64,000 nucleotides of DNA. It comes from a virus. The stretch lies in the IMG/VR virus record IMGVR_UViG_3300045988_112808. One strand, given 5' to 3'. The notes beneath the pieces were generated by a model, which saw only the letters and a list, made by a program, of their open reading frames with translations, did not search any database and was not told where the DNA came from. Positions 6,114 to 21,990 of the stretch are shown here, one piece after another. A program made the position numbers and the translations under genes. The number at the start of each line of letters is the position of its first letter. Position 1 is the stretch's first letter.

Positions 6114-6115
6114 GT

Positions 6116-6646
6116 ATGAGAAGGAGATTTTTTAATGCTGCGGATAATTTCGTGGGAGGATGTTATAATAAGTTATCTAATGAGGATATAAAAAGGCTTG
6201 GAGGGAAAAGACCTTATGTATGTCAGTTTAATAAAATTCATGTACATATAGGACCTGTGTTAAAAGATCATGATTCTGATGTTAGTTACATAATGTTTAA
6301 TAGTTATTGGAATCAGGGTGGTTATGAATCTATGGTTTATAATCATAGCAATAATGGTATTTTTATATTAGGTGAAAACAAAATTGGTAACATAGAAGAT
6401 CATATACAAGATCTAACATATTGGTACGAATATGATCCAAGCATTAATGAAAATTATTGTTATTTTTATTATGAGGCTAATAACAGCGGAAATGCTATCA
6501 AGTTGAATGGTGAGTTTGGTGAGACCAGTACTGTTTTCAACATTCCCAGCTTGGAAGTCACCACTCTTCGTGATGGCAGTTTGAGTTTTCCGGAGATTTA
6601 TATAGAAGGAATTTGGGATCCGTCATTGTATAAGTCGGTTTTATAA
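6116..6646 (+). CDS. small protein with N-terminal MRRRF motif (176 aa from the ATG at 6116)
   Basis: The ORF track starts at GTG 6107; the ATG at 6116 gives MRRRFFNAADN. It lies 2 nt after the giant ORF stop. The same MRRRF start occurs at 20542 and 21164. Confidence 0.7.
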   Translation: MRRRFFNAADNFVGGCYNKLSNEDIKRLGGKRPYVCQFNKIHVHIGPVLKDHDSDVSYIMFNSYWNQGGYESMVYNHSNNGIFILGENKIGNIEDHIQDLTYWYEYDPSINENYCYFYYEANNSGNAIKLNGEFGETSTVFNIPSLEVTTLRDGSLSFPEIYIEGIWDPSLYKSVL

Positions 6647-6655
6647 TTAACTTTG
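6627..6655 (+). promoter_or_regulatory. candidate Bacteroidota-type promoter (TTG-N18-TAacTTTG)
   Basis: TAACTTTG at 6648-6655 matches the TAnnTTTG -7 box, 17 nt before ATG 6673. It overlaps a 10-bp perfect palindrome (6645-6654 / 6660-6669). Confidence 0.4.
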
Positions 6656-6672
6656 CAAAAAAGTTAATTACA

Positions 6673-8928
6673 ATGGGTGTCAAATGTCAGATAGAAAAAA
6701 AGGAAAATGAAATAAAACGGGTTAAGGCTCCTAACGGGGAGCCTTCCGTTCTTTACGAAAGTGCCTTAAAATTATTAGGAAACAGCGAGCGGGCTCTTCA
6801 GGTATGGGCTAAGGCTTACACTCTTGGTTTTTTGTCGTATTACGGTCATTGGAATAACCCGGCTCCAGGGGAGATGTTTAACACCGATCCCAATGGCGAA
6901 CCTCTTTTAGAAGACGTGCTGTCGTATATGAAGCGTCAGGCTTATTTTTCCGATCCCTTAACGGCTCAGGATGTTAAGGATGTAAGAGATGTTATGATAT
7001 CCAATTCCATATATAGCATACGATCTCTTATTAATAGAGTTAGAGGCTCTTTTTATGTGGATGGTAATCTTATCCTAAATGAAGAAAATCTAAGGAGATC
7101 CGGCTTGTACAATGAGACAGAGATAAGTAGGATATTAGATAATCCTTCTGTACTTAATGAGGTCAGCTCTTTTATGAGGTTATTATTAGATTATTCCAAT
7201 AACGAACACGATCTCGGGAAAGAGTCTTACTTCACAACCGTAGAAAAACCATACGGTCCTGTTGTGTATAAAAATGGCGTCTTCAATAAATTAGGAAAGA
7301 GAGCATCATATAATCCGGCTGAAGTTTACGAGGTTATAAAAAATACAGTAGGAGGTATTAGTGTTGCTTCAGAGTTTGATGCTGCTTTCGAATCTTTATC
7401 TGATTCATATCCGGAGTTAGTTGAAAGATATCAGTCGGATAAGAGTTTTGCCTTGTCGCTGTTCAACGAATTTTCGAATATGAACATCGTTCCGGTTGTG
7501 GCTTTAGAAGATAATAATATCGTAGAAGGGAAGAGACGGTCATTGTCAAAGTTGCAAGATTATGCTTATTATAGCCCTATTAATGCTGAGTCATTACGGG
7601 CTCGTATATCAGCCTTTCTAAATAGGGTTAATGCTGATACAGAAGAAGACCTTAGAAGTATGATATGGGACGTAGAAGAGGCTTGTGTAGGTCTTGGTAT
7701 AGATATCGTAGGGGCGTCTAAAGCATACGACGGAACAGAAGAATCGCTGAATAAAATTGATAGCTTGATGTTGGATCTCGATATTTATGTAGCAAGGCAC
7801 AACGATGACACTTATGCTCCTACCTTAGCTTCTGCTATTGATAATGTTCTTGGAGATAGCAGGGATCGCCGTGTTATGTTTCTGCCAGAGTATATGGATA
7901 ATATGAATATCGTTTATATGGAATCTGACATAGATCCGGTATCGGCATTTGAAAATCATTCTCTGCTTTATCTTGGTGGAAACCTATATCATAAGGTAGA
8001 AAGAGATAATTTAGGTGATTTGTACGATATAGCTGCCGAGCTTGCCAAGCGGAGTCTAACTTATTTCCCACCTGGTATCTATCCTGAATATTGTTTTAAG
8101 GATGGTGTTTTAGATAAGCGCCGCGTGGAAAACGTAGATAGTAAGGTCCTTGCTGATTCTATTAAAAAATACATCCTGTCTTATACCGATTCTCAGAATA
8201 CGGAAGAGATGAATGCTACCAGATTGGCGTTCGGTCATCTTGTTATTCCTGAAAGTCCGTATGTTAATGAAGAACGGGAGTTTAGCCGATACATAAACAG
8301 AAAGCAGGACAAAGAGAATCCTTTACTCTTATTCGATTTATACCAATCTTATCTTGAAAATAAGCTTCATAATACGGAAGTGTATGAAGGGGCATACAAG
8401 TATCTTGATTTCAAACCGGATCATTTGCTGGGTCTTACCGTTTCAGATCCGGATACGTTAAAACAAATTGAACTATCTTTGGCAGGTAATGATCGTGAGC
8501 AGTTATTTGAGTATAGCATGAGCAGCACCGATCCTTCTTTTACAGATCTGTTCTATTTGGATTATTATGATATGTTATATGCCGGTTCTGATTTCTATCA
8601 CGATCTTTTTACAAAACATCCTAATCTCTTAAATGAGGTTCGGGGTCATAACATAACTAATCAGGATGATAATGTTATCGTAGAAGGTTTGTATGATAAT
8701 TTTATCAGAATAGGAAACATAGTGTTCACTAAAGTCGGCGAAAGTAGTTCCGGCTCTATCTACCAAAATCTGACAGGAACCGAATCGGAGGTGAAATACG
8801 ATTCTACTCAGAAGGCTAAGACGGTAGAAACCGATTACGCTCCATACCAAAACAGATCTGGCTTGACGCAAGATATGATCGTAAGCAAGTCTGAATTGGA
8901 TGATCTTAACAAATTAGAATGCAAATAA
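6673..8928 (+). CDS. large virion-block protein (751 aa), function unassigned
   Basis: Long ORF between the giant genes. Its N-terminal ~60 aa share a motif pattern with the N-terminus of the 2137-aa ORF (G-x-x-S-x-L-Y/F ... ERA ... F/Y-G-x-W). Confidence 0.85.
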   Translation: MGVKCQIEKKENEIKRVKAPNGEPSVLYESALKLLGNSERALQVWAKAYTLGFLSYYGHWNNPAPGEMFNTDPNGEPLLEDVLSYMKRQAYFSDPLTAQDVKDVRDVMISNSIYSIRSLINRVRGSFYVDGNLILNEENLRRSGLYNETEISRILDNPSVLNEVSSFMRLLLDYSNNEHDLGKESYFTTVEKPYGPVVYKNGVFNKLGKRASYNPAEVYEVIKNTVGGISVASEFDAAFESLSDSYPELVERYQSDKSFALSLFNEFSNMNIVPVVALEDNNIVEGKRRSLSKLQDYAYYSPINAESLRARISAFLNRVNADTEEDLRSMIWDVEEACVGLGIDIVGASKAYDGTEESLNKIDSLMLDLDIYVARHNDDTYAPTLASAIDNVLGDSRDRRVMFLPEYMDNMNIVYMESDIDPVSAFENHSLLYLGGNLYHKVERDNLGDLYDIAAELAKRSLTYFPPGIYPEYCFKDGVLDKRRVENVDSKVLADSIKKYILSYTDSQNTEEMNATRLAFGHLVIPESPYVNEEREFSRYINRKQDKENPLLLFDLYQSYLENKLHNTEVYEGAYKYLDFKPDHLLGLTVSDPDTLKQIELSLAGNDREQLFEYSMSSTDPSFTDLFYLDYYDMLYAGSDFYHDLFTKHPNLLNEVRGHNITNQDDNVIVEGLYDNFIRIGNIVFTKVGESSSGSIYQNLTGTESEVKYDSTQKAKTVETDYAPYQNRSGLTQDMIVSKSELDDLNKLECK

Positions 8929-8970
8929 TTTTTGTACACATATATAGTTTTTTTATAATTACAATTTGGG

Positions 8971-9000
8971 AAGTGGGGCTTGTGAAAGTCTCACTTTTCT
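8971..9000 (+). terminator. rho-independent terminator candidate
   Basis: AAGTGGGGC (8971-8979) pairs with GTCTCACTT (8988-8996), including two G-U pairs. It is followed by TTCTT and lies 43 nt after stop 8928. Confidence 0.5.
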
Positions 9001-9068
9001 TATATATGCACGTATATCAATAACATACAAGAAAAGTTAGATTTTCATTGTTTATGAATTATTTTTGT

Positions 9069-9076
9069 TAAGTTTG
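9069..9076 (+). promoter_or_regulatory. candidate -7 promoter box TAagTTTG
   Basis: Matches TAnnTTTG in the intergenic region upstream of ORF 9151; the -33 element is weak. Confidence 0.3.
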
Positions 9077-9150
9077 CAATATTAGTTTCAGGAAGGGATT
9101 ATGGAAATAAGGAAAAAGTAAGAACCGAACGTAACTAATAACAGTAGGAA

Positions 9151-9348
9151 ATGAGAATCAGTACCATCAAACGTAACAACAGCATTCATCTTATGTATAA
9201 AAACATTATGAATGATTTAGGTCAATTAAGAACTGTAGTTTCAAAATCCTATATTTATAATCTGATACAAAATCAAACCGGATTAAGTATCAGAACTATA
9301 TCCCATGTCTTGAATCACACAAAAGAACAGGATACAGATTCTTTGTGA
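9151..9348 (+). CDS. small HTH-like protein (65 aa or shorter)
   Basis: The segment TGLSIRTISHVLNH resembles a helix-turn-helix recognition region. Followed by a hairpin terminator. The start is uncertain (internal Met at residues 15 and 20). Confidence 0.4.
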   Translation: MRISTIKRNNSIHLMYKNIMNDLGQLRTVVSKSYIYNLIQNQTGLSIRTISHVLNHTKEQDTDSL

Positions 9349-9431
9349 AAGGCATACATTTTCCTACATTTGTGTGTTCTTTAGTTTTTAGATTTAAGTT
9401 TTTCATGGTATTAGTTTAGATTAGTGTAGAT

Positions 9432-9466
9432 CAGGGCTCGCAGTGATGCGGGCCCTGGTTTGATTT
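9432..9466 (+). terminator. rho-independent terminator candidate
   Basis: CAGGGC-T-CGC ... GCG-G-GCCCTG stem (9432-9457) followed by GTTTGATTT. Confidence 0.55.
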
Positions 9467-9482
9467 AAAAAGTATTAAAATA

Positions 9483-9513
9483 TTTGCTATTTAAAATCCT
9501 GTTCCTATCTTTG
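9483..9513 (+). promoter_or_regulatory. Bacteroidota-type promoter (TTTG-N19-TAtcTTTG)
   Basis: TTTG at 9483-9486 and TATCTTTG at 9506-9513 with 19-nt spacing match the -33/-7 consensus. It would give a ~115-nt leader before ATG 9636. Confidence 0.55.
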
Positions 9514-9635
9514 CTCCAGAAACAATGAACAACGAGATCCCACCTCTGGTTGTTTGATGTTGAAAGATATTTTTGGCTCATTAGGGTTTGTCATAGTGGG
9601 ATCTGACATTCTCTTTTGGGCCTATTTTTTTTATC

Positions 9636-10202
9636 ATGGATAAAGTTTCTGTTTTTGAAAGTTCGGATTTTGGAGAGCTTAGAATTATTGTAGATCCAAA
9701 AGGAGATGTTTGGTTTGTGGCGTCAGATGTGGCTAAATCTCTTGGATATATAAATGCTAAAGATGCGGTAAAAAGACATGTAGATGATGATGATTCTATG
9801 CTTTTGCAAGTATCTGATAATCAATGGGGCGTAAAACGATCTATATTGAAAACCAGATATATAGATAGTATAAGAATAATTAATGAATCTGGTTTATATT
9901 CTCTTATATTATCTTCAAAATTAGAGTCTGCTAAGAGATTTAAGAAATGGGTAACATCTGAGGTTCTTCCTTCTATTCGTAAAACAGGAGAATATAAAAC
10001 AAGTTCCGGTGGAAAGGGAATTTTGGTCCCTGACTTTTCTAATCCGGCAGATGCAGCAAGAGCCTGGGCTGATCAATATGAAGCTGCTCAAAAAGCTATA
10101 GCCGAAAAGTCGCAGGCAGAGGCAGAAGCCGGCGTTCTGATGGGACGTACATGGGGTACGGTGGTGGTATTTACGACCATTACGGTATGCATGAGAAGAT
10201 GA
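9636..10202 (+). CDS. Bro-N domain protein (BRO/KilAC-type antirepressor family)
   Basis: N-terminal pattern FGELRIIV..G..WFVASDVAKSLGY....DAVKRHV ... INESGLYSLILSSKLESAKRFKKWVTSEVLPSIRKTGEY is the classic Bro-N signature. The last 17 codons overlap the next gene and look non-native. Confidence 0.85.
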   Translation: MDKVSVFESSDFGELRIIVDPKGDVWFVASDVAKSLGYINAKDAVKRHVDDDDSMLLQVSDNQWGVKRSILKTRYIDSIRIINESGLYSLILSSKLESAKRFKKWVTSEVLPSIRKTGEYKTSSGGKGILVPDFSNPADAARAWADQYEAAQKAIAEKSQAEAEAGVLMGRTWGTVVVFTTITVCMRR

Positions 10203-10795
10203 AGGAAATGGAAGAGCGAGAAAACGAGCTGGAAGAAAGGGAAAGAAGGCTCGAAGAGCGCGAACGTCGTCATGAAATGGAAGACCGGGAATACCGGAGG
10301 ATGGGTTACGAATCCTACCCGACCGATTACTATGGAGACGACAGATACTACGGTGACGGACCTCAGATGCGCAGAGGTCGCGGACGTGGCAGAGGTCGTT
10401 CTTATTGAGGAGCAGACGCAGAGGATCCAGCTTATCAGAAATATGTAGATACTTACGGCTACCATTTTTCTAATGCTCTCGCTGATGAGGCGGTAAAGAA
10501 GATGGTCAACGTCGATGGATCCAAGAGGATCTGGAAGCAGCCGGAAATAAAAGATATTTTTGAAAAGTGCGGAGCGAAGAAGCCGGATAAAGCGACATGG
10601 GGCGATGTCCAATATGTCTTTGCAATGTACTATTCGGATGGTTTTCCGAAGGTCTTCAAATGTGAGAACGAGTTGGTGAAAGCTACGTTAATGTATTTGG
10701 ATGATCCGGATGCTCCCGAAGGAGTAGCCTTTATAAGATGGCTTGCCGTGCAAGATTACCTCGGCGAAAAAATAAACTGGAAGGATCTGACCTGA
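10151..10795 (+). pseudogene. single gene split by an in-frame TGA (10406-10408): RG/Y/G-rich disordered N-terminal part plus a conserved-looking C-terminal domain
   Basis: ORFs 10151-10408 and 10502-10795 are in the same frame. The stretch 10409-10501 is open and encodes ...YHFSNALADEAVKKM, contiguous with MVNVDGSKRIW...FAMYYSDG. Only the one TGA interrupts the frame. Confidence 0.55.
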
Positions 10796-10898
10796 GATCC
10801 AGACCCAGGTCCTTCCGGTGGTGCGGGAGCCATAGTAAAAAATATGATTCCCGCATTCCCGTTTTTCCCGTTTGGAAAAAAAGAATAAAAATGTTATA

Positions 10899-10938
10899 CC
10901 GGTCGGCGGGCAATAGAATACCCGTGGCCGGTTTGTTT
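10899..10938 (+). terminator. weak terminator candidate
   Basis: CCGG..CGGG / CCCG..CCGG interrupted stem (10899-10931) followed by TTTGTTT. Confidence 0.3.
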
Positions 10939-10957
10939 CACATAACTTTTTTTTGAC

Positions 10958-11134
10958 ATGAATATAGCACACGAATCTAAATCGAATAAAACCCCATTGT
11001 ATTTAATAGGAGAGTTGATTGGCGTACCGAATACGGTTATGGACTCAGCATTGCATGAACTGAAAGATAGAATAGACAAAGACCCTAAATATAAAGATGT
11101 TAAAAATTGGCTCGAATCTTTACCCAAGATCTGA
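10958..11134 (+). CDS. small hypothetical protein (58 aa, below the ORF-track cutoff)
   Basis: ATG 10958 to TGA 11132-11134 (MNIAHESKSNKTPLYLIGEL...). A strong terminator follows 22 nt downstream. Confidence 0.4.
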   Translation: MNIAHESKSNKTPLYLIGELIGVPNTVMDSALHELKDRIDKDPKYKDVKNWLESLPKI

Positions 11135-11156
11135 ACCTATTTTTCCCAATACCAGG

Positions 11157-11190
11157 CCCGATGCGATTTTAACGTATCGGGTTTTTATTT
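11157..11190 (+). terminator. rho-independent terminator
   Basis: CCCGATGCG (11157-11165) / CGTATCGGG (11173-11181), 9 bp with one G-U pair, 7-nt loop, then TTTTTATTTT. Confidence 0.75.
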
Positions 11191-11236
11191 TAATTCATAT
11201 TGTTTTATTTTAAATCTAATTAATTCATAAATGTCG

Positions 11237-11244
11237 TACATTTG
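11237..11244 (+). promoter_or_regulatory. candidate -7 promoter box TAcaTTTG
   Basis: Matches TAnnTTTG 17 nt upstream of ATG 11262, directly after a terminator. Confidence 0.4.
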
Positions 11245-11261
11245 TTGAAAAAGTATTCTAT

Positions 11262-11489
11262 ATGGAAAATAAGGAAGATTACGTTGGTTACGAAGATCAA
11301 GAACTGTGTAACCGGTATTACAAAGAGGCCGAAGCCATGAGGCAAAAGCAGGACTGGTATCGGCTTAGGGCTGTCCCTGCTCCGGCCAAGGGAACGCCAT
11401 CGCCCGGCTGGGGTCAGCTTGGACGTGGAAATGAAGTTCGTGTCAAGTACGTTAGCATCAATTCAGGATTAGGAGGGGACAGATTATGA
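11262..11489 (+). CDS. hypothetical protein (75 aa)
   Basis: First ORF after the promoter box. Its stop overlaps the next start (ATGA at 11486). Contains a GC-rich patch at about 11330-11440. Confidence 0.6.
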   Translation: MENKEDYVGYEDQELCNRYYKEAEAMRQKQDWYRLRAVPAPAKGTPSPGWGQLGRGNEVRVKYVSINSGLGGDRL

Positions 11490-11701
11490 CCGTAGAAGAA
11501 TTGGCTAATAAAAGATACGGTGGCGAATTTGTTTTTATGCTTGGTCATTTGGAAGGTGTAACAAGATTCGTTTTTGAATGTTTCGATCCCAGACCTGATC
11601 ACGAAGGTAAAAATACTTATATGGTTTCCTATTTTGATAAGCGCATCCGTAGAAGAGATGTAGTAGATGTGCCATGTTATATGAGTGTTTTAGCAAAATA
11701 A
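11486..11701 (+). CDS. hypothetical protein (71 aa)
   Basis: ATGA-coupled to the upstream ORF; same-strand operon context. Confidence 0.6.
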   Translation: MTVEELANKRYGGEFVFMLGHLEGVTRFVFECFDPRPDHEGKNTYMVSYFDKRIRRRDVVDVPCYMSVLAK

Positions 11702-11721
11702 ATTAAAATATTGTAAATATC

Positions 11722-12243
11722 ATGGTTAGAATCGCATATTTCGGAACCGATGGCTGCCCCGGTCATCACGTTATTCCAATACGAGGTAAATTCACAGAAG
11801 AGGATATTAAGGTAATAGAATCTGTAGATTGTGATGATTTCTATAAGGTGTTTGACGTTATGCGTTTTAAGATAGCTGAGTTTAAAGGATGGACGATATT
11901 GGGAATCCCGGCAAGCTTAGACGATCATAGACCTGGGAGCAAAACCGTTATCTTCATAGAGGGTAAAGCTAACGAAGCTGATTTTATGGAAGTCATACAA
12001 GAGTATTCTTTTCTTAAAAATAAGGTAAAGAAACTTATCGAATTGTATCATGATGGAGAATGGCTTGCGACTGGTAAATTGAATCAAGATCCGCCTACTA
12101 ACAAGGAGCGGTTTCAATTTATGTTAGACAAGGATGATAAACTGGTGGTGGTTCCTGGAACGTGGCATGGTAGGTTCAAGAAAGAATGGCCTACTGAAGA
12201 AGAAAAGAAGCATATTGGTAAAAACGGTATTTTAAATTATTGA
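11722..12243 (+). CDS. hypothetical protein (173 aa)
   Basis: ORF-track ORF; tight same-strand packing (20-nt and 3-nt gaps). Confidence 0.7.
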   Translation: MVRIAYFGTDGCPGHHVIPIRGKFTEEDIKVIESVDCDDFYKVFDVMRFKIAEFKGWTILGIPASLDDHRPGSKTVIFIEGKANEADFMEVIQEYSFLKNKVKKLIELYHDGEWLATGKLNQDPPTNKERFQFMLDKDDKLVVVPGTWHGRFKKEWPTEEEKKHIGKNGILNY

Positions 12244-12246
12244 TTT

Positions 12247-12552
12247 ATGTGTGATAAGGAAATTGTTGTATGCGCAGCTATATGGGTTCAAGATCACAAG
12301 AACAAGCCTCACGGTCCAGTAAACATACCATCCGGAACCGTATTTTGTGGATTGAGACATTGTTCCATAATATCTCAACTTGCGGCATACGGTATAGCCC
12401 ATAAAAACCGCAGTGTTCAAGGATTTTTGACGAGCAAGAACCGGTTTTTAACAAGAGAGGAAGCATCTGAACTTGTTAAGAGCAATAATCAGGAAATGGT
12501 AGTAGATAGGAGTGCTATTAGAGAACAATTGTATTCAGAAGATCTATATTAA
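12247..12552 (+). CDS. hypothetical protein (101 aa)
   Basis: ORF-track ORF, 3 nt after the previous stop. The motif GLRHCSII...QGFLTSKNRFLTREEA recurs in small phage proteins by recollection only. Confidence 0.65.
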   Translation: MCDKEIVVCAAIWVQDHKNKPHGPVNIPSGTVFCGLRHCSIISQLAAYGIAHKNRSVQGFLTSKNRFLTREEASELVKSNNQEMVVDRSAIREQLYSEDLY

Positions 12553-12570
12553 CTAAAAAAACAAAACAAC

Positions 12571-12924
12571 ATGGGGTTTAAAATCAAAAAGTCAATCACT
12601 TATGATATGATGGACGACAGTCGGGTAGAGTATGAATTTGATAATACCAATGATTTAAATCATATCATATTTAAAGGTAATTGTAGAGAACCTTTTTCAT
12701 TTAGCAGAGTACTTGTTGAAGAATTAATTAAGACATTTGAAACCATACGGGATAGATACTTTGATAATTATGAACTTAAGGTCTATCTTTACAATTGCAT
12801 AATTCAACTGAGCGTAAATCCAAAGGATCCCAGTGAATCCTTTTTTGGCGTATATGATAGAGATGAGATGAAATTGATATACGGAATAAAGATCAGTATT
12901 CTGAAAGGAATGTTTGGCATATGA
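12571..12924 (+). CDS. hypothetical protein (117 aa)
   Basis: ORF-track ORF; its stop overlaps the next start (ATGA at 12921). Confidence 0.65.
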   Translation: MGFKIKKSITYDMMDDSRVEYEFDNTNDLNHIIFKGNCREPFSFSRVLVEELIKTFETIRDRYFDNYELKVYLYNCIIQLSVNPKDPSESFFGVYDRDEMKLIYGIKISILKGMFGI

Positions 12925-13238
12925 TGACTAAACAAGATATACAAGCAGCGGCATCGTATATTTTCCGAAGCAGTTTTGTCTCGGAGGACCAGGCAAGGAA
13001 AGCAATGGTAAGAGCCGGCAATAACGCTACCAAGATCCTCGTCAAGACCTTTAGAGGCAAGTTGTTCAAGAAAGCTTTTGAAAGAGCCCGTAGAGGAAAG
13101 GATATCAGTTCTTTTGAAAAACAGGAAAAAGAAAGTGGTTTCAATTTTCTACATAATCCTAATAATGGTCGTATGCAAAGCGGTCATATTATAATAGATG
13201 GAATTGGTCTGTTTAAACAAATAATTCATGAAAGGTAA
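12921..13238 (+). CDS. hypothetical basic protein (105 aa)
   Basis: ATGA-coupled to the upstream ORF; Lys/Arg-rich. Confidence 0.6.
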   Translation: MMTKQDIQAAASYIFRSSFVSEDQARKAMVRAGNNATKILVKTFRGKLFKKAFERARRGKDISSFEKQEKESGFNFLHNPNNGRMQSGHIIIDGIGLFKQIIHER

Positions 13239-13398
13239 AAAAGTTGATATTCGTTTAGGCAGAGGTCTGGCGAATCAGATTAAGATAAACAAAACCATCC
13301 CAGTGTCTCATAAACCAAAAGAAGAACGTCGAATGATGTTTATTTGTGGTGATGATATTGCTTCTCTTATAAAGCGGTTTGAAAACGAATCAAAGTAA
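13228..13398 (+). CDS. small hypothetical protein (56 aa, below the ORF-track cutoff)
   Basis: ATG 13228 to TAA 13396-13398 (MKGKKVDIRLGRGLANQIK...). Overlaps the previous gene by 11 nt; a hairpin terminator follows 10 nt downstream. Confidence 0.35.
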   Translation: MKGKKVDIRLGRGLANQIKINKTIPVSHKPKEERRMMFICGDDIASLIKRFENESK

Positions 13399-13407
13399 TA
13401 TAAAGTA

Positions 13408-13434
13408 GGACATGTATCTTGTCCGATTTTTTTT
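13408..13434 (+). terminator. rho-independent terminator
   Basis: GGACA (13408-13412) / TGTCC (13420-13424), 7-nt loop, then GA plus T8 (13427-13434). Confidence 0.6.
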
Positions 13435-13447
13435 ATATATTTGTGGC

Positions 13448-13771
13448 ATGTCAAGAGGTTATTATTGGATACCACAAACAGATGAAACGTTAAATGGCAG
13501 AAGCTATTACGTGGCTAAGATAGTAGGAGATATCACGTTTGATACTAAACGAAAAAGAATCGTATTTCAAGCTGATAGGTATTTCCCTGTAGGATCTGTT
13601 TTCCATTTTACGCACAATTGCTTCAACTATATCATAACTTGCCGACTTCGCAAGCCGGGGCTTTGGTTTGAAGCCAGGAGAGAGGATTCAGGCCCTATTT
13701 GCCCTGAAGATATTGAGCGCTTTGAATCGGGAAGGTTTATACACCGAGATGGGTACATGCATTACATATAA
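13448..13771 (+). CDS. hypothetical protein (107 aa from the ATG at 13448)
   Basis: The ORF-track start at 13412 lies inside the terminator loop, so ATG 13448 (MSRGYYWIPQ...) is preferred. A TATATTTG box (13436-13443) ends 4 nt before it, so the mRNA may be leaderless. Confidence 0.6.
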   Translation: MSRGYYWIPQTDETLNGRSYYVAKIVGDITFDTKRKRIVFQADRYFPVGSVFHFTHNCFNYIITCRLRKPGLWFEARREDSGPICPEDIERFESGRFIHRDGYMHYI

Positions 13772-13823
13772 GCTGAACTTGACGATTTTTCGTAAGATTA
13801 TAATTTTTTTTCATATTATTTTT

Positions 13824-13861
13824 AAGCCATCAGACTGAGAAGTTAGGTGGCTTTATTTTTT
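13824..13861 (+). terminator. rho-independent terminator
   Basis: AAGCCATC (13824-13831) / GGTGGCTT (13846-13853), 8 bp with one G-U pair, then TATTTTTT. Confidence 0.65.
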
Positions 13862-13882
13862 ATGATATGCTTGATTTTTAAC

Positions 13883-13890
13883 TACCTTTG
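13883..13890 (+). promoter_or_regulatory. candidate -7 promoter box TAccTTTG
   Basis: Matches TAnnTTTG 23 nt upstream of ATG 13914, directly after a terminator. Confidence 0.4.
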
Positions 13891-13913
13891 TCTCATAACA
13901 AAAATGTTTTACT

Positions 13914-16900
13914 ATGACATCAGCGTGTATTATTAAAAGAGATAATAAAAAGAAAGTTGTTTCTGTCTCTACCATATCAGGGGACAGGTCTATGTTATTT
14001 GATAAAATAGCATCTATTCCTCTTATGGAGAACAGGGAACGGGCCACTACTGTTTTTAAAACCGTATTTTCTAATAAGTTCTTAAAGGCTTTTGGCGACT
14101 GGAGAAAGAGAGTGCCTATCAACAAACCGGCTTATAATAAGGTAAAATCCAACATCGATCTTATTCCGGAAGCCTATAGAGAAAGGGTGTTGGATAAGGC
14201 TTCTAAGATGAGTAATCCTGTTCTTGTGTCAAAATCAGATGTACCTTATGAAATCCAAGAATCGGGCTTTGGATTCTACAGCCAAAATCTGGGTGATAAT
14301 ATTATGTTGGTGGATGCTATGGTCCCGTCAAGTATTTCCGTACCGGAAGGACCGGGAATAGACGCCGGGCAGTATCTACAAGATGCTATATCTTCGGACT
14401 TCACTCCCGTATCTATGGTACAGGATAAGGGTGTTAATTATATGGTTATAAAAGATGGTCTTAAGATATTTAGCCCAGAGGAGTTACCAGAAACAGATTC
14501 TAATCCTGTGGGTGTAACGTATCAGACCGGAGAGCCTCGTTTGTTTTTCATGAACGATCGTAGTCAATTATTTGAAGATTACGGAGAAGCTCTTCGCTCT
14601 GGCGGGAATGATATTAGAATAGGGTTCTTATCAGGCACCGTTCAAGAATCTACCGTGGATGGCGTGGAAGACATTACTTACAAAGCTGGAAAGTATGTTC
14701 TTAATAATCCCAAGTCTTTTATACCGGTCATGACCGCGTCTGCTTCTACTTCTTTATCAACAAAAGGTGGTATAATTAACTACCTTATAAAGAAAGGTCT
14801 TTTGTCCGGATCTAAGATATTCGATCCTGAAACAAGAAGCTATTATCTTACAGGAGAAGGACATACAGGACAAATTAGACTTTTCAATTCAGCCTTATCC
14901 TACACCGAGCTCCGTAATCATTTTGGTTCCGATGTTTCCATGAACGACCAAGGTATGATAACCATAAGCTCGTTGGATAATAGTAAGGTAACTATGAGGC
15001 TCGCCACCGGAGGAACGGAAAGGGTTAGCAAAGAGCAGATAAAGAACGATCTTAAGTCAGGAAGATACAATGAATTGGACGCCAAGTACGATCATTTTGA
15101 TGCGCTTGTAGTTTCATTCATATTAGAAGACAACGATCTTTATGCTGATACTAAAGCTAAGATCGTATCAGATTATAGCAGGCAGGAACGTGATCAACGA
15201 AATTCTATTGTCGAGATACTGAAAACTCTTGGCGTTAGTGTCATAGGTATGACCGACTATATAGAGAAGTACCAAACCAAATACGGGCATGAACCTTCTG
15301 CTAAGGCATTGGCGGATATTGCCAATAACGTAATAGCAGTTGGTGAAGATGCTACTTTATCTGATTTAGTAGAAGAAACAGCCCACTTCCTTGTAGAGGC
15401 ATACAGAGATCAGAATGCCGTTGAGGCTGTTCTGCAAGATGTAGAAGGTACGGAAGAGTGGAACCAGTATGCAGGTCAGTATTATAATACATACGGTAAG
15501 GTATATGAAGGAGCTGAGCTTGATAATGCTGTTAGGAGAGAAATTCTTGGAAAGATCCTCGCCATGGAGATGCAGACCGGCACAGCACAGGCGCCGGTAG
15601 AGCCCACCTCCTTCCTGGGGCGCGTCCGGCAGCTTCTCTCTGGAATCGTAAGCTGGCTTAAATCAGCTTTATCAACCCAAAGACAAGATTTGAATAACGT
15701 TATTAAAAACATTCGTGATCTTGCCATTACTGACATAGATAAAGGATTTGACACTTCTCTGTTAAAGGATAATGACTTTACATTATACTCCCTTTCTTCT
15801 ATGAACAAGAACAAGTTTCTTGAGTCTAAGATCAGATCACTAAGAAAAACATTAAGAGACTTACGTCAGATAAGCTCTGATAGGGCTGTAACTACGTCTA
15901 TGACCCTTGCTCAGCTTAAGACCATAGAAGATAAGATAAATAAGGTAGAGACCGAAATAGACAAGAATGAGATGGCGGCTGCCATGAACAGCATGATCTC
16001 CACAGCCGAAGCTCAGGTTAGATACTTAAGTAATGTGGTGAACACCATCCTTCATGGTGATACCAAAGACGGTAAGCTTCACTTCAATACCAATGATCGA
16101 AAGAACGTAGATATTATCAACAATCAGGTTCTTCCGATCATGAACGATCTTCGAGGATATATCCGTAACAGAAGTACCGAATTTGATGAACGTGAAAAGC
16201 AGGATTATACAAATAGGATCAATACCGTCATTGCCGACATCAATGGTATTCAGTCTGATATTAAATCAGTACAAGACCTTGATGAAAGTACGTTGCTTGA
16301 TAAGTTAATGAACGAACTTCATGTGCCGGCAGATAAGGTAAAGAGAGTAAAAGAATTTTTTGACAAGGTTCAACACGATGTTTCTTGGATAAGTAGGTGG
16401 TTTGGTATATTAGAGCATTCTTCCAGCCCGTTCAATAACGCTCTTGGAGCTATGATTGCCAAAGACAATTACAATGCGATGGTGAATGCCCAGCCCGCCA
16501 TATCCGACTTCCTGGCATATGCTAAAAAGCATGGTTTTAACAAATCTGAATTTGAAAAACTGCTTCAGAAAGTAGACGGCAAAACTTCCAATTACCTTCG
16601 TAGTGCTCTTGATATGGCTAAATACGATCGTAATAAGAAGCTGGCGCAGATGCGAGCGTTTGCGACTGCCATGAACATAGAGATATCAGAAGAAGAAATT
16701 GGTGATGTGGTTGACAATAACCGTAATTACGTATTTAAAAGAGAAGTAGTTGACAAGGACGGAAATACGGTTACTGAAAACGCTAAATTTAAACCATCGT
16801 CCGATAGGGTTAATACCGATATTTTTACCATCGAGCAGGAAAAGATCTATACGGAGCAGATGGAAAAGTGGGATGCTGAAAATTCAGAATTGGAATTTAG

Positions 16901-19900
16901 TGAAAGTTATGCCACAAGAATGGAATCCATATACAAAAAGGCTGAAGAAGAATTAGGACATCCGGTTTCTCAAACAACCAAAGAATACCTTAATGCCTTA
17001 TCCCGGCAAAAACGGATATTGAGGCAGCCTTTTATTGATAGCGGTGGTAATTTTGATGAGGTTGCCTACTATAAGAGTAGTAACTACGAAGAAGAAGGAC
17101 TGCTTCGTAAACAACGTAAGGAGGCAGCTTCGGAATACATATATGTAGGAACCAGGAGAGTGGAAAAAACCGGCGACCAACTTAAGATGGCCAAAGAAAT
17201 ACAAGCCATAAATGAAGTTTGGAGAAAAGAATCAAATAATGCCACTAATGCCGTATCAGAATCGTTTTTGCAAAAATTAAGAACGATTCAGAGCGAGTCT
17301 GGAGGAGAAGCTGCGCTGAAGACGCTTATGTTGGGGGGTCACCTGTCATTCAACGATCGGTTTTGGAATGACGTAGAATCGGAACAGTCGGCGCGTACCG
17401 AATCAAATAACAAGGCTTCGTATCTTAAAATGGCGCATGATATCATTAGTTCTACGACAAGTGATAGAGATGCGACTGACGTGGACTCGATTGTAAAAGA
17501 TATAGAAAAAAATAAGGCCATTATCAAGGAAATAATCGGAAACAATCGCGATGTGGCTGATATCGGAGAAATCAATGAAGCGACATTTACCTCATCTGAA
17601 AGAGATGCTTTTAGGGCCGCATCTGAAGCTATTGAAGCCGATTACGCTATTTTGATAGATTATGCTAAGATGGTGGGTCTTGAAGATATTGATAAGTACC
17701 TTACTAAAAGCAGTAAGGCTGAAAACGAAGTAAATCAGTCTTATTTAAGTGCTCTTGCTGACTCTAAGGAAATTGAATGGCAGTTTGCACAGCGTCATAC
17801 TACTGCCAAAAAAGCCAAAAGGATTCAGGCTCTTAGAGATAAGTTATTCATGGCTCAAGATAACAGGTATATGTTTACCGTCTCTGAAACCAACTACTTG
17901 TCAGAAAAATTGGGAATAGATAAAAAGCTAGATCGTAGAGATTTTAGGAATGCGGTTAGAGCTAAGATGTCTGACATATTTGGACACGATAACGGAGTAG
18001 CTGAAGTGAACGATATCGTTAATGAATTTGCCAGGAGCCAGGTCTTTTCGTACTATAAACGCATGGCGCCTACCGGATATGCGGCTATGATCGACAAAAT
18101 CGGTCGAGGTGAGATAGATGTGGCGCAGATGGTTAAGGACGTACAAAACGGTACATCCACCCAAGATTATGGCATGGACATATCGTACCTGTCTTTCGAT
18201 CCTGCAAGGGCATGGGTGGCTGAATCTGAAGCCGAAAATAGCGGCCGTAATCCTGATTATGTAAAAGATCATGGGTATGGTCATCGCATGCCTAAGAAAA
18301 GCCTGTATCGTGATGAATCATATTTCAACGACTTCGGCATTAAGTATGATGCTGATGGTAATGAGGTTGCTACTAAAAACATAGAGCAGTGGAATATGAT
18401 TCAAAAACTCAAGGAAATAAAAAGACAATCCCTTGATCTATACAAAGAGCAGAGCCCGAACCTGTATGCTATTCCACAGATATCCAAACAAGATATAGAA
18501 CGTATAGAAGGGTTAGGTATCAGCCTTAAAAGTACGGTCAGGAACTTCGTATCCGACTTATGTCTTGACCGCGTAGATGACTCCCTGTATGGTAAAACAC
18601 GTCAGGGTGAGGTATATGATCCGGAAGATAGGGTTCGGTCCATACCTAAATACTACATATATGAATTAGAGAACCAAGATGATGTATCTCACGATTTTGG
18701 CTACTCTTATTCGATGCTTATGATGCAGTCATCGTTATATAACGAAAAGCAGAAGTCTATAGAGCTTGCCCAAGGACTGGAGCAGATGTTACTGAATAAA
18801 CAATTTGAGGGTGGTAAGAAGGCTGAAGCAACCCAAGCATATCAGATGTTCAGGGACTTCTTCAACGATCATTATTATGGCATTAGGATGAACACCAAAA
18901 AACTTACGGTGAACATCGGAGGATATACGGTAGACCTTACAAGAATTATGATGGCTGTTGAAAGGTTTATGTCGGTCATGAACTTGGCACTGTCTCCGTT
19001 TGTGGCAGCTACCGGCGCCCTTACCGGCCATATCAACCTCATCATGGAATCTGCCGTAGGACAGTATATAAGCAAAGACTCCCTTAAATACGCATCGGCT
19101 GAGTTTTCACGTCTTGCGCCATCTTGTATAGCAGAAACCGGAGACATAGATAGGAAAAGCAAATTATATGTCATAGGTGAGAGAATGGGGATATTCAATA
19201 TCCGAAATCGTATGTATGGTGCCGGATACAATAGAGCGGCCAGGACCTTAATGCGTTCGCCTATGTATGCTTTTATGGAAATCCTGAACTACCCTCTTGA
19301 TCCGCAGGTTATGATTGCTACTATGGACAATGTTCGTTATTACAAAGGCCGGTTCTACACGTTCCAAGATTTCAAGATGGAAAAAGAACGTAATAAAGAA
19401 CAGAGTACCATAAAAAGAGAATGGAATGCATTAAAAGATCGTACTTTATGGAGTATGGTAGACGTCGTGGATGGGAAGGTGGTTGTAAAGCCAGGATCGG
19501 GTGTTACTGTTGAGGAAGTTGAAACCCAGATGGCTATAACCAGAAATCAAGTTCGTAGCTTGTCGCAGATATGTAACGGATCTTTGAATGAAGAAAACCG
19601 AACTGCCGCATCGCGCAACTGGATAGCCAGGTTCATGACCGCCCACCGAGGATGGTTGGTGCTGGCGGCTCAACGTCTGTGGAAAAGACGTGGCTTCAAT
19701 TTCCAGACAATGCAAGAAGAGGAAGGACTGTCAATTACGTTAAAGAATATGATAGCCAAAACATTTAGCTTAGCTTCCGAGTCTGGTATGAAAAACATCA
19801 TAGATGCCTGGAACGAAAATAAAGACAATATGAATGAGGTAGAGAAAACCAATATAAAACGTCTCAGTGTCTATGCCGGCACGTTCCTTATCATGCAAGC

Positions 19901-20327
19901 CGTATCCATGCTTCTTGCCGGATGGCGTGATGATGATGAAAACGAAGAAAGTTGGCTTACTCAATTTGGATCCTATGTCGGATTCAGAACCATAAACGAA
20001 ATAGCTTCACAGATGCCGTTTATTATGGAGCTTAACGTTGTAGATATCATTAACGACCCGTTTGTCATGGGGCGGAAGTTGAAGGATCTTACTGATCTTA
20101 GGAATTACTCACTTGATAAAGTAACATCCGGCACATACAAAGGAGAGTTTAAGTTATTTAGGCAACTCGCCAAACAGACGTTTATCAAACAATGGTATAA
20201 TATCAAGACGCCGGAAGACGTAGCGCGCGCCTATAATTGGTGGCAGCAGACAAACAACAAGTCAATGATGTTCTTCATCGGCGCTACTCCTGATTCGGAA
20301 GGAGACGATGACGTTAGTTACAAATAG
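13914..20327 (+). CDS. giant virion-associated/ejected-type protein (2137 aa), function unassigned
   Basis: Uninterrupted 6.4-kb ORF with its own promoter box and terminator. Its N-terminal module is shared with ORF 6673. Hydrophobic segments near the C-terminus (MNLALSPFVAATGALTGHINLI; YAGTFLIMQAVSMLLAGW) suggest membrane insertion. No DxDxD RNAP motif seen. Confidence 0.85.
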   Translation: MTSACIIKRDNKKKVVSVSTISGDRSMLFDKIASIPLMENRERATTVFKTVFSNKFLKAFGDWRKRVPINKPAYNKVKSNIDLIPEAYRERVLDKASKMSNPVLVSKSDVPYEIQESGFGFYSQNLGDNIMLVDAMVPSSISVPEGPGIDAGQYLQDAISSDFTPVSMVQDKGVNYMVIKDGLKIFSPEELPETDSNPVGVTYQTGEPRLFFMNDRSQLFEDYGEALRSGGNDIRIGFLSGTVQESTVDGVEDITYKAGKYVLNNPKSFIPVMTASASTSLSTKGGIINYLIKKGLLSGSKIFDPETRSYYLTGEGHTGQIRLFNSALSYTELRNHFGSDVSMNDQGMITISSLDNSKVTMRLATGGTERVSKEQIKNDLKSGRYNELDAKYDHFDALVVSFILEDNDLYADTKAKIVSDYSRQERDQRNSIVEILKTLGVSVIGMTDYIEKYQTKYGHEPSAKALADIANNVIAVGEDATLSDLVEETAHFLVEAYRDQNAVEAVLQDVEGTEEWNQYAGQYYNTYGKVYEGAELDNAVRREILGKILAMEMQTGTAQAPVEPTSFLGRVRQLLSGIVSWLKSALSTQRQDLNNVIKNIRDLAITDIDKGFDTSLLKDNDFTLYSLSSMNKNKFLESKIRSLRKTLRDLRQISSDRAVTTSMTLAQLKTIEDKINKVETEIDKNEMAAAMNSMISTAEAQVRYLSNVVNTILHGDTKDGKLHFNTNDRKNVDIINNQVLPIMNDLRGYIRNRSTEFDEREKQDYTNRINTVIADINGIQSDIKSVQDLDESTLLDKLMNELHVPADKVKRVKEFFDKVQHDVSWISRWFGILEHSSSPFNNALGAMIAKDNYNAMVNAQPAISDFLAYAKKHGFNKSEFEKLLQKVDGKTSNYLRSALDMAKYDRNKKLAQMRAFATAMNIEISEEEIGDVVDNNRNYVFKREVVDKDGNTVTENAKFKPSSDRVNTDIFTIEQEKIYTEQMEKWDAENSELEFSESYATRMESIYKKAEEELGHPVSQTTKEYLNALSRQKRILRQPFIDSGGNFDEVAYYKSSNYEEEGLLRKQRKEAASEYIYVGTRRVEKTGDQLKMAKEIQAINEVWRKESNNATNAVSESFLQKLRTIQSESGGEAALKTLMLGGHLSFNDRFWNDVESEQSARTESNNKASYLKMAHDIISSTTSDRDATDVDSIVKDIEKNKAIIKEIIGNNRDVADIGEINEATFTSSERDAFRAASEAIEADYAILIDYAKMVGLEDIDKYLTKSSKAENEVNQSYLSALADSKEIEWQFAQRHTTAKKAKRIQALRDKLFMAQDNRYMFTVSETNYLSEKLGIDKKLDRRDFRNAVRAKMSDIFGHDNGVAEVNDIVNEFARSQVFSYYKRMAPTGYAAMIDKIGRGEIDVAQMVKDVQNGTSTQDYGMDISYLSFDPARAWVAESEAENSGRNPDYVKDHGYGHRMPKKSLYRDESYFNDFGIKYDADGNEVATKNIEQWNMIQKLKEIKRQSLDLYKEQSPNLYAIPQISKQDIERIEGLGISLKSTVRNFVSDLCLDRVDDSLYGKTRQGEVYDPEDRVRSIPKYYIYELENQDDVSHDFGYSYSMLMMQSSLYNEKQKSIELAQGLEQMLLNKQFEGGKKAEATQAYQMFRDFFNDHYYGIRMNTKKLTVNIGGYTVDLTRIMMAVERFMSVMNLALSPFVAATGALTGHINLIMESAVGQYISKDSLKYASAEFSRLAPSCIAETGDIDRKSKLYVIGERMGIFNIRNRMYGAGYNRAARTLMRSPMYAFMEILNYPLDPQVMIATMDNVRYYKGRFYTFQDFKMEKERNKEQSTIKREWNALKDRTLWSMVDVVDGKVVVKPGSGVTVEEVETQMAITRNQVRSLSQICNGSLNEENRTAASRNWIARFMTAHRGWLVLAAQRLWKRRGFNFQTMQEEEGLSITLKNMIAKTFSLASESGMKNIIDAWNENKDNMNEVEKTNIKRLSVYAGTFLIMQAVSMLLAGWRDDDENEESWLTQFGSYVGFRTINEIASQMPFIMELNVVDIINDPFVMGRKLKDLTDLRNYSLDKVTSGTYKGEFKLFRQLAKQTFIKQWYNIKTPEDVARAYNWWQQTNNKSMMFFIGATPDSEGDDDVSYK

Positions 20328-20464
20328 ACGAAGAATATCGGACTTGCATTGTTTTTGTATGATTCCAATATGTTATATTAGCATCGTCAAAGAGTAGATT
20401 GTACGTTTTTTTGTTCTTACTTGAAAGATTATGTAGGTTTAATTTTTTCTGAAATTGTTTTCTT

Positions 20465-20505
20465 ACCGGTTCTCAGTCAGAGATGATAGAGAACCGGTTT
20501 CTTTT
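20465..20505 (+). terminator. rho-independent terminator
   Basis: Perfect 10-bp stem ACCGGTTCTC (20465-20474) / GAGAACCGGT (20489-20498) followed by TTCTTTT. Confidence 0.7.
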
Positions 20506-20541
20506 ATGTTGTCAATTATTGCTATCTTGCAAACAAAAATC

Positions 20542-21159
20542 ATGAGACGAAGATTTCAAATAGGGATGGGGGTAAATCCCTCGCTTATAATCAATAAAGG
20601 CATATACATCCAACATGTAGATGGAGGATTATATACAAAAGAAAATTGGTCTAATAAAGGATATTCCAATGATCTATGCAATGGAATAGCTCTTGTAGAT
20701 AAAGTGTGTTTTGTTATAGCCACCGAATATATTGGCACATTTCGTTGGGGTAAGGATGGAAGAGTAGATAATGTATTTGCACAAAATAGTTCTTATATGG
20801 AGACCGTTAAAAAGGATTATTGGGGGCGTGAAAATCAGAATGCGTATCTTGAATATGATACCAGTAATGAAAATTACGCTTTTAATAAAGCTAATAGCTA
20901 TTTATTTAAAAATGGTCAAAATGGATATGTAGGTGGCGCCGGAGAGTTTTTTTTGATATCATTGTATGCGAATGAAATAAACGAATGCTTTTTAATGGTA
21001 GGAGGTACGATAATGAGTAATAAAATGTGGACATCCACTCAATCTACACAATTTACCTATTCGTGGTATTATGATATAAACATCCAAGGGGATCATTTGG
21101 ATACAAGTACAAGGAGTAATCCACGTTATGTCCGCCCCTTTACTGAATTAATTTTATGA
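20542..21159 (+). CDS. MRRRF-motif protein with a DUF1566-like C-terminal domain (205 aa from the ATG at 20542)
   Basis: The ORF-track TTG start at 20455 runs through the terminator, so ATG 20542 (MRRRFQIGMG) is preferred. The C-terminus ...GAGEFFLISLYANEINECF...MWTSTQS...SWYY...RYVRPF resembles the DUF1566 / Lcl C-terminal pattern. Confidence 0.7.
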   Translation: MRRRFQIGMGVNPSLIINKGIYIQHVDGGLYTKENWSNKGYSNDLCNGIALVDKVCFVIATEYIGTFRWGKDGRVDNVFAQNSSYMETVKKDYWGRENQNAYLEYDTSNENYAFNKANSYLFKNGQNGYVGGAGEFFLISLYANEINECFLMVGGTIMSNKMWTSTQSTQFTYSWYYDINIQGDHLDTSTRSNPRYVRPFTELIL

Positions 21160-21163
21160 AATT

Positions 21164-21901
21164 ATGAGAAGAAGATTTGAAAATAATGCTAAACTATATG
21201 AGTATAAGATAGTTAGCGATTGTATAGGGGGGGAGGTAATCGTAGAAGGAAAGAAAGTAGGCACCATTCCACAGGGCGGGCAATTTATCTTTCTGTCTAA
21301 AAAAGAACGGCTGGATTCCATAAGTGTCCAAGGCGGTGTTCCAATGGAAGATAGGCAAGAGATCGATAATAGGGTTGATACGACAGAGGAATTGCTTGAA
21401 CAGGATTCGGTGGTTCTTGCTGTTGCTTTAACAACCTCTCCTTATTATGGATTTAGAGTAAGTGTGATAGCACCTGATGAGTTTACGCTAAGAACAACCA
21501 ATAGGATTAATAGAACCTTTTTAATAACAAGCTTTACTCCACCTGCTGCTATATACGGTGTAAACTTTAGTGATCCTATTGTCCTTAATTATGATAGTTA
21601 CCAATATAAGATGCCAGATCTTGTAATTGATGGACCTCATGATAGAATAGTTAGGGCAGATCCTAATTTTACTTGGACTACAAGATGTACAGATGCCGAC
21701 TTTACACCTTTGCCATATCCAGAATCATGGTCTGGCCAAGGTTTAAATTCTATGTTCTTATCAGAAATGAAACGTCTTACTCCTGGTGATCATCATGTAT
21801 CATATACAGCTTATATTAAATTGGACTTGATAGATGATGGCGGAAGTAAAGTTCATACTGAATATCTGGTATTAGAAAAAACACTTAATTTTACGATATG
21901 A
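21164..21901 (+). CDS. MRRRF-motif protein (245 aa)
   Basis: Starts MRRRFENNAKL, 4 nt after the previous stop. It is the last plus-strand gene before the convergent hairpin. Confidence 0.75.
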   Translation: MRRRFENNAKLYEYKIVSDCIGGEVIVEGKKVGTIPQGGQFIFLSKKERLDSISVQGGVPMEDRQEIDNRVDTTEELLEQDSVVLAVALTTSPYYGFRVSVIAPDEFTLRTTNRINRTFLITSFTPPAAIYGVNFSDPIVLNYDSYQYKMPDLVIDGPHDRIVRADPNFTWTTRCTDADFTPLPYPESWSGQGLNSMFLSEMKRLTPGDHHVSYTAYIKLDLIDDGGSKVHTEYLVLEKTLNFTI

Positions 21902-21947
21902 CAACAATCCCCAACCGTACGCCTATTGTATGGTTGGGGATTGTTGT
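21901..21947. terminator. bidirectional terminator hairpin at the convergence of the two transcription blocks
   Basis: Perfect 16-bp inverted repeat ACAACAATCCCCAACC (21901-21916) / GGTTGGGGATTGTTGT (21932-21947), 15-nt loop, between stops at 21901 (+) and 21991 (-). Confidence 0.75.
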
Positions 21948-21990
21948 AGTTACCATCTTTTCTTGTATAAGCAGAACATGAAATAAGTTT

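Follow-up and report, generated by a model that had tools for sequence, protein, structure and literature searches.

A short basic N-terminal tag, MRRRF, heads unrelated and exchangeable proteins encoded by epsilon crAss-like phages and is a candidate docking peptide for fibre-type modules

Why do three small genes at the end of the virion arm of a crAss-like phage encode proteins that share their first five residues and little else? The question is raised by a 64,000-nucleotide stretch of IMG/VR virus record IMGVR_UViG_3300045988_112808 (the window), in which genes A, B and C (Table 1) each begin with the peptide MRRRF, called the tag below. Positions 5000-22500 of the window are ~92% identical to phage csAssE-Sib (OR575929, 151 kb, human gut), an epsilon crAss-like phage of the proposed genus Epsilonunovirus with a possible Parabacteroides host (Babkin et al., PMC11054128), and on sequence similarity the window is assigned to the epsilon crAss-like phages, Epsilonunovirus. 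In the INPHARED phage collection csAssE-Sib was its sole relative. The motif MRRRF goes unmentioned in the csAssE-Sib paper of Babkin et al. (PMC11054128), and a literature search on it returned nothing relevant. Genes A, B and C form the end of the virion arm; from 21991 on, genes with replication functions occupy the opposite strand, and none of the genes in that replication arm is initiated by the tag. As detailed below, the tag is conserved as a peptide, marks the exact joint at which unrelated cassettes are exchanged and is closely accompanied by poly-G tracts, and we weigh the possibility that it mounts fibre-type modules on the virion.

A reading of the window made from its sequence alone had reported MRRRF at the starts of open reading frames (ORFs) at 6116, 20542 and 21164. 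These proved to be the only three occurrences of the peptide in all six frames of the 64 kb, each of them at an ORF start. Because the window's own amino-acid frequencies lead one to expect only 0.0004 MRRRF starts among its 74 long ORFs (P for three or more ~1e-11), the triple occurrence is not a matter of chance. The impression that the three proteins are otherwise dissimilar was equally well founded: past the first 6-16 residues, neither BLASTP nor profile-profile comparison relates the bodies of A, B and C to one another.

Comparison of the first 15 nt at the nucleotide and amino-acid levels revealed a conserved peptide written in varying codons. Following the ATG, the tag is encoded by AGA AGG AGA TTT in A, AGA CGA AGA TTT in B and AGA AGA AGA TTT in C. 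F6, a tagged family encoded outside the window, spells the identical peptide AGG CGT CGT TTC, with four synonymous differences. Substitutions within the tag replace Phe with Tyr (TAC or TAT) and Arg with Lys (AAA). Among the best 120 F6 homologues (45-96% identity), MRRRF starts 34 proteins, MLRRR 30 and MSRRR 8, with MMRRR, MRRRL/V/Y, MKRRA and MNERRR making up further starts; degenerate forms such as MLRRRT, MSRRRF and MNERRRLL are seen in distant homologues. A full HMMER scan of 1.84 billion representatives recovered distant homologues of C down to 28% identity (28-53%), and these start with MRRRY, MRRRF, MRRRL, MSLLRRRM or MRRRS. Across homologues, RRR is displaced by one to four residues from the initiating Met. 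Judged from these alignments, the conserved object is a basic peptide near the N-terminus, RRR plus a hydrophobic residue (M-x(0-4)-[RK]-R-R-hydrophobic), at a slightly variable distance from Met. The comparisons show a tag that appears to be under selection as a peptide, not as DNA. The conserved N-terminal peptide proposed from the window is thereby upheld, being kept in orthologues and in homologues at 28-60% identity whose codons differ. The alternative proposed alongside it, a conserved translation-initiation context, is disfavoured, because the codons of F6 are entirely different and RRR is shifted relative to Met.

Examination of ~280 related loci overall (the count of 160 used for family assignment refers to IMG/VR loci of the same clade, whose tagged ORFs were sorted into five unrelated families) placed tagged ORFs at three slots or loci in related genomes, with at least eight unrelated protein bodies behind the tag. 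Slot 1 contains either A (43 intact copies) or F2 (17 intact copies; MRRRYEDV, 192 aa), a protein unrelated to A. Slot 2 contains B, and slot 3 contains C or the unrelated F4 (149 aa). In csAssE-Sib itself, giant virion gene 1 is followed by a gene that starts MRRRYEDV and has no relationship to A, and B by one that starts MRRRFENIKTV and has none to C. Up to three more tagged families (F6, F7 and F8) are arranged in tandem at a third locus, located outside the window and upstream of the muzzle gene, which is not downstream of a giant gene. Tagged genes are also present in a distant lineage in which giant gene 1 is only 54% identical; there, MRRRF and MRRRY genes again come directly after giant gene 1. 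This lineage is known from two short contigs only, since a search of IMG/VR with its giant-gene fragment P0080 gave the same clade only.

The boundaries of these replacements are sharp. Sequences carrying A and F2 part after ATGAGAAGGAGAT, and their difference ends on the 3' side at the ATG of the next gene (6673); those carrying C and F4 part after ...TTTGAAAATA, with homology resuming at the hairpin at 21901-21947. These junctions show that the tagged genes are cassettes swapped precisely at the tag, in keeping with the exchangeable modules first envisaged. In some genomes without B, the region upstream of B together with the CGA codon of B is joined to the body of C or F4, creating hybrid tags, and chimeric B/C and B/F4 proteins are also present among relatives. 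Given the hybrid tags, the deletion of B and the chimeric proteins, the 15-nt tag sequence demonstrably serves as a recombination joint between slots. TnpB/IS605 OrfB genes were observed to adjoin tagged cassettes (L292 8001-10383; L002 23987-25126 and 29191-30414). A C-like gene is inverted beside TnpB in L292, another epsilon-like contig, TnpB genes flank the F6 region of csAssE-Sib (L002), and the F6 homologue P0205 was called as a fusion with TnpB domains.

The tagged genes are further distinguished by homopolymers. The window has one run only of seven or more G or C, the G7 located 63 nt into C (21227-21233), and the sole such run in the whole csAssE-Sib genome is a G11 situated 18 nt upstream of the F6 start (L002 28257-28267). 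Related loci totalling 3.7 Mb contain 55 runs of seven or more G, and 43 of these fall within -60 to +150 nt of a tag. Tracts range from G5 to G11 in C, from G4 to G9 in B and from G7 to G11 in F6, where they lie upstream of the ATG. Copies with identical 600-nt flanks differ in tract length, with pairs or series of 5/6/8 and 5/9 for B, 8/9 for C, and 10/11 and 8/9 for F6. C alleles with G8 and G9 yield ORFs of 24-45 aa, not 245, and ~60% of distinct C alleles are so frameshifted. One class of B alleles has its body in frame with an upstream TTG or ATG, not with the tag (P0001, P0057), and the distant lineage has a G15 in an out-of-frame F2-like gene and a G9 in another tagged gene. The tracts couple or uncouple tag and body by frame, and their pattern is, as far as assemblies can be read, the signature of putative contingency loci. 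Our literature search on homopolymer or phase variation in crAss-like phages found no report. Two other homopolymers were seen at the tagged genes. The tag of A includes a T6 run (6128-6133; AGA TTT TTT) that is T7 in three related loci, where a stop comes directly after MRRRFF; either an assembly error or one more homopolymer switch may be behind this. The A-run 5' of the ATG of B (20520-20541) varies from A5 to ~A10 among relatives and is preceded by two alternative upstream sequences.

The clearest indication of what a tagged body might be comes from F6, which matches Pfam Gly_rich_2 with an E of 3.6e-16. The AlphaFold2 (AF2) model of F6, based on a 77-sequence alignment, has a predicted local distance difference test (pLDDT) score of 90.5. 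The tag is predicted to form a free arm, because the scores of residues 1-4 are under 50 and the first of the strands begins at residue 12. Foldseek returned as top hits the fibre protein gp24 of cyanophage Pam3 (7ypx, E 5e-6) and tail tip chains of mycobacteriophage Bxb1 (9d93), with the glycine-rich domain of ALK/LTK as the next structural match. Viral predicted structures with the F6 fold are mostly labelled glycine-rich, collagen-like or tail-fibre. Pam3 gp24 docks to the baseplate via an N-terminal part.

Gene order in other phages also places tagged genes next to fibres. In L290 and L295, which are crAss-like or related contigs, a tagged glycine-rich gene follows a collagen-like fibre gene of ~1050-1112 aa; its start overlaps the fibre stop in L295 and is one base past the fibre end in L290. 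Downstream come a ~340-aa protein and then a holin, and the same gene order is found in L296 behind a 570-aa gene. The C-terminal domain of the L290 and L295 fibres recurs in a Mu-like prophage, within a protein of 1245 aa, and in a collagen-repeat protein of csAssE-Sib, and the ~340-aa protein has a 370-aa homologue adjoining the latter's gene (L002 2830-5007; csAssE-Sib 37.8-40.0 kb, outside the window). The csAssE-Sib collagen-repeat protein and its 370-aa neighbour are candidate docking partners of the tag. L297, an unrelated 180-kb contig, has a tandem array of homologues of C, F6 and F2, each with a start of the form MLR[RK]x, and the Mu-like prophage encodes two glycine-rich proteins and an F2 homologue with the starts MNRRK, MSRRRF and MNIRRF. 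The same tagged families travel together beside fibre genes in unrelated phages. Moreover, tags are more alike within a genome, on unrelated proteins, than between orthologues, which fits co-evolution with one partner per phage. The hosts of phages carrying tagged proteins are probably Bacteroidales, on the basis of low G+C and published prophage matches. The solved virion of crAss001 has no RRR-tagged structural protein and so provides no direct model for the tag.

Proteins A, B and C themselves are less revealing. PHROG and Pfam scans gave no significant match for any of them, and Gly_rich_2, the feature of F6 and of glycine-rich fibre adhesins of the Pam3 gp24 and S16 gp38 type, was absent from all three even at E up to 10. 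Protein A matches nothing in Pfam, PHROG or the PDB and has no detectable relative beyond the clade. Protein B weakly matches Lcl_C/DUF1566 (E 1.3), as does the related tagged family F8 (E 0.034), both far below the 34.9-bit cut-off. The AF2 model of B, from a 7-sequence alignment, has a pLDDT of 29 and is unusable, and PDB sequence searches with the B and F6 profiles had no match. Behind its tag, protein C has a PEGA-like N-domain (~65 aa) and then a C-terminal part that varies. Alignment pairs this N-domain with PEGA repeats of large, surface-type proteins, and residues 4-40 of C with P0232, which has 13 such repeats; C has no direct hit to Pfam PEGA (PF08308). The N-domain is kept with the tag in distant homologues and is shared with F2 (weak likeness over the first ~38 residues; profile-profile E 3e-4), and the C-termini diverge, as in P0215, which has its first 78 residues in common with C. 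A possible lipoprotein signal in F4 (…VFAC↓S) was rejected on account of a non-conserved Cys (P0063). The suggestion in the sequence-only reading that the tagged proteins are tail or receptor-binding modules consequently holds in part: related tagged families have fibre- or adhesin-type folds and elsewhere come directly after fibre genes, but A and B have no such match.

We propose that MRRRF is a short, flexible, basic N-terminal peptide borne by small, free-standing proteins, polyphyletic as a set, of human-gut-metagenome phages. The proteins would be distal tail-fibre or adhesin-type modules, and the tag would be an arm that docks them non-covalently onto a common virion site, most likely either the partner protein of a collagen-like fibre or the fibre's own conserved C-terminal domain. 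T-even gp38 adhesins capping gp37 would be an analogue. One phage could then display alternative binding domains that are switched on and off stochastically. To distal modules docked through a basic tag and varied by cassette exchange and poly-G switching we assign roughly an even chance. A more general proposition, that a universal N-terminal RRR plug mounts unrelated binding domains on one tail socket in gut phages (probably of Bacteroidales, crAss-like phages included), with cassette shuffling at the plug sequence and poly-G switches, is advanced tentatively and with more doubt than belief. If it were true, one genotype would release virions with different, stochastically chosen adhesin sets, a phage counterpart to the phase-variable capsules of the hosts.

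Several observations weigh against docked fibre modules. It is F6, a family encoded beyond the window, that supplies the evidence for a fibre fold, and for the genes at hand A is without detectable relatives or domains, the model of B is unusable and virion membership of all three is purely inferred. An attachment element of 5-11 residues would be very short, and its partner is a candidate only. A few F6 homologues have no RRR (MQNKKK, MGKKN), and P0001, a B allele with a called TTG start and its tag in another frame, indicates that the tag is not indispensable for every body. The likeness of tags within a genome is explicable by gene conversion alone. Synteny with crAss001 makes the flanking giant genes likelier to encode ejected internal proteins, a setting that fits a cargo role equally well. 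Finally, assembly or sequencing error may account for part of the differences in tract length, although tract placement is unaffected by it.

The cargo role is the main rival. Here the tag would be a packaging signal that directs fast-evolving small proteins to the lumen of the capsid or tail for ejection with the DNA and the giant proteins, by analogy with T4 internal proteins. Gene position keeps this explanation alive, the tagged genes lying beside giant genes that, from synteny with crAss001 (gp45-gp50), probably encode ejected cargo including the virion RNA polymerase (PMC11054128). Hypervariable bodies behind a common N-terminus are likewise in its favour, and DNA or acidic cargo would be possible ligands of a basic arm; the C-terminal tails of giant proteins 1 and 2 are acidic. 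It is weighed down by the fibre or tail-tip fold of F6 and by the fibre-gene context, tagged genes elsewhere coming after fibre genes and before lysis genes. In addition, the third tagged locus sits among tail genes, and the surroundings of the epsilon loci showed neither a protease cleavage motif nor a gene for a prohead protease. We consider packaging unlikely. Conservation of DNA or RNA instead of peptide, as a purine-rich start context without a Shine-Dalgarno sequence or as a dedicated recombination site, strikes us as rather less probable. It would accommodate the use of the 15 nt as a joint by hybrid-tag recombinants and between-tag deletions, as well as the AGA or AGG codons in most tags, but not the synonymous recoding of F6, the conservative amino-acid substitutions in homologues or the shift of RRR by 1-4 codons from the ATG; moreover, only 3 of the ~74 long ORFs of the window use this context.

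Intragenomic recombination or gene conversion, by copying the same gene start between slots, might even preserve a tag that has no function. Recombination at the tag is documented, and the greater likeness of tags within genomes than among orthologues would be expected from it. However, a single genome, csAssE-Sib, encodes the same peptide by different codons in F6 and in the other families, and the RRR core is kept in phage types with no common flanking DNA; a functionless tag accordingly seems quite improbable. To action of the tag in the host cell, whether as an export signal resembling those of twin-arginine translocation (Tat) or as a basic patch for the binding of acidic polysaccharide or nucleic acid, we give the least credence. 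RRRF does agree with the Tat consensus in its RRxF core, the sequence in F6 is RRRFLIK, and the motif spans several phage types, all of them low-G+C gut contigs. A Tat-like signal is nevertheless excluded by the lack of a hydrophobic region after the motif: across residues 5-41 of eight families, the maximum 12-residue Kyte-Doolittle mean is -0.06 to 1.67 and mostly below 1.4. Residues after the tag are, furthermore, often acidic (ENN, EDV, ENI), and the fold of the F6 model begins at residue 12.

Are the giant virion genes, then, partners of the tag? The sequence-only reading had described each tagged ORF as lying downstream of one, but A alone directly abuts one, starting 2 nt past the TGA of the giant ORF ending at 6113. 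B starts 214 nt past the end of the 2137-aa ORF (20327), with a hairpin in between, C starts 4 nt past the stop of B, and the third locus is elsewhere. The 2033-aa ORF named as the upstream neighbour of A is in the position described but is truncated by the window start; its csAssE-Sib counterpart, annotated as a structural protein, has 2208 aa. Synteny with crAss001, the hairpin between giant gene 2 and B, and the location of the third locus away from a giant-gene end all imply that the giant genes are probably not the partners of the tag. Synteny also suggests that fibres are a less likely product of these genes than internal proteins that are ejected. The association with giant virion genes drawn at the outset looks positional, not functional, with transcription-unit ends acting as cassette slots, and a place beside a giant gene is probably merely permissive.

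Table 1. Coordinates of the tagged genes, their neighbours and inverted repeats in the window
Feature	Position	Strand	Description
Gene A	6116..6646	+	176 aa, MRRRFFNAADN; tag 6116-6130; cassette slot 1, directly after giant gene 1
Gene B	20542..21159	+	205 aa, MRRRFQIGMG; tag 20542-20556; G5 at 20568-20572, 26 nt after ATG
Gene C	21164..21901	+	245 aa, MRRRFENNAKL; tag 21164-21178; G7 at 21227-21233
Giant virion gene 1	12..6113	+	cut by window start; upstream flank of slot 1; phrog_32390
Giant virion gene 2	13914..20327	+	2137 aa; next gene upstream from B and C; match to phrog_37651 (virion structural protein) at E 8e-77
751-aa gene	6673..8928	+	cassette slot 1 ends, on its 3' side, exactly at the ATG of this gene
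Inverted repeat, 15-nt arms, then T-rich stretch	20465..20498	+	between giant gene 2 and B; terminator-like
Inverted repeat, 20-nt arms	21901..21947	+	directly 3' of C; 3' boundary of slot 3; between convergent genes

The terminator-like hairpin at 20465..20498 was not called by a consensus terminator scan. Expression of tagged proteins as frameshift fusions to the giant proteins was set aside, for A owing to a stop 5 codons upstream in its frame and for B owing to the 214-nt gap with its hairpin. A D-x-D-x-D polymerase motif, sought in the giant genes as a means of picking out the virion RNA polymerase, was not found, and PDB sequence searches with the giant proteins and the 751-aa protein gave no match. 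Giant protein 1 and the 751-aa protein end in similar C-terminal motifs (…INELNKEC, 6087-6113, and …LDDLNKLECK, 8899-8928). Giant gene 2 contains a G6 (17333-17338) that is at least G7 in nine related loci, breaking the 2137-aa frame unless compensated, and is annotated in csAssE-Sib as two overlapping coding sequences. Between both giant genes lies a block of small genes (9151-13771) that includes a BRO-N/antirepressor-like protein (9636-10202); the csAssE-Sib version of this block is longer, with extra genes and different content.

Epsilon crAss-like phages are abundant but uncultured members of the human gut virome, and the layer of host recognition known for them is a protein diversified by a diversity-generating retroelement. 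Three layers of variation may now be added: a shared tag that marks interchangeable candidate adhesins, cassette exchange at that tag, and homopolymer switches adjacent to it. A, B and C with their alternates are concrete candidates for proteomics and host-range work. Should the tag prove to be a docking peptide, the specificity of Bacteroidales-infecting phages could be engineered through it.

Among known systems, the tagged proteins most resemble T-even gp38 and Pam3 gp24, which are also small separate proteins with a conserved N-terminal attachment part, a variable receptor-binding part and modular exchange. The resemblance to gp24 extends to the TNF-like plus polyglycine fold of the F6 family (PMC9608196) and to the location of the gene after a fibre gene in L290, L295 and L296. 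Unlike in gp38 and gp24, the shared element is ~5-11 residues rather than a domain, it heads several unrelated folds (glycine-rich, PEGA-like, possibly lectin-like and others), and attachment through it would be by inference; A, B and C themselves have no similarity to either protein. The internal proteins of T4 are hypervariable and have an N-terminal capsid-targeting sequence. As with that sequence, a short conserved N-terminal peptide is found here on unrelated, fast-evolving small proteins of polymorphic loci, but no cleavage site or protease is evident and the sole well-modelled tagged family has a fibre fold. Tat signal peptides share the N-terminal RRxF core and, unlike the tag, continue into a hydrophobic region, so the tagged proteins are not members of that class. 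Fletchervirus phages of Campylobacter are described as having hypermutable poly-G tracts of this type in their receptor-binding genes (Sorensen 2021, cited in PMC12633550). Both sets comprise runs of 7-11 G in putative host-recognition genes, with length changes that shift the frame, and they differ in phage group and host phylum; the tracts reported here, known from assemblies, lie directly behind a shared tag or, in F6, 18 nt upstream of the ATG. Collectively, the tagged genes are a new variation on familiar themes, adhesin cassettes that are modular and keep their N-terminus on the one hand and contingency switches made of poly-G on the other, in an abundant, uncultured group of gut phages.

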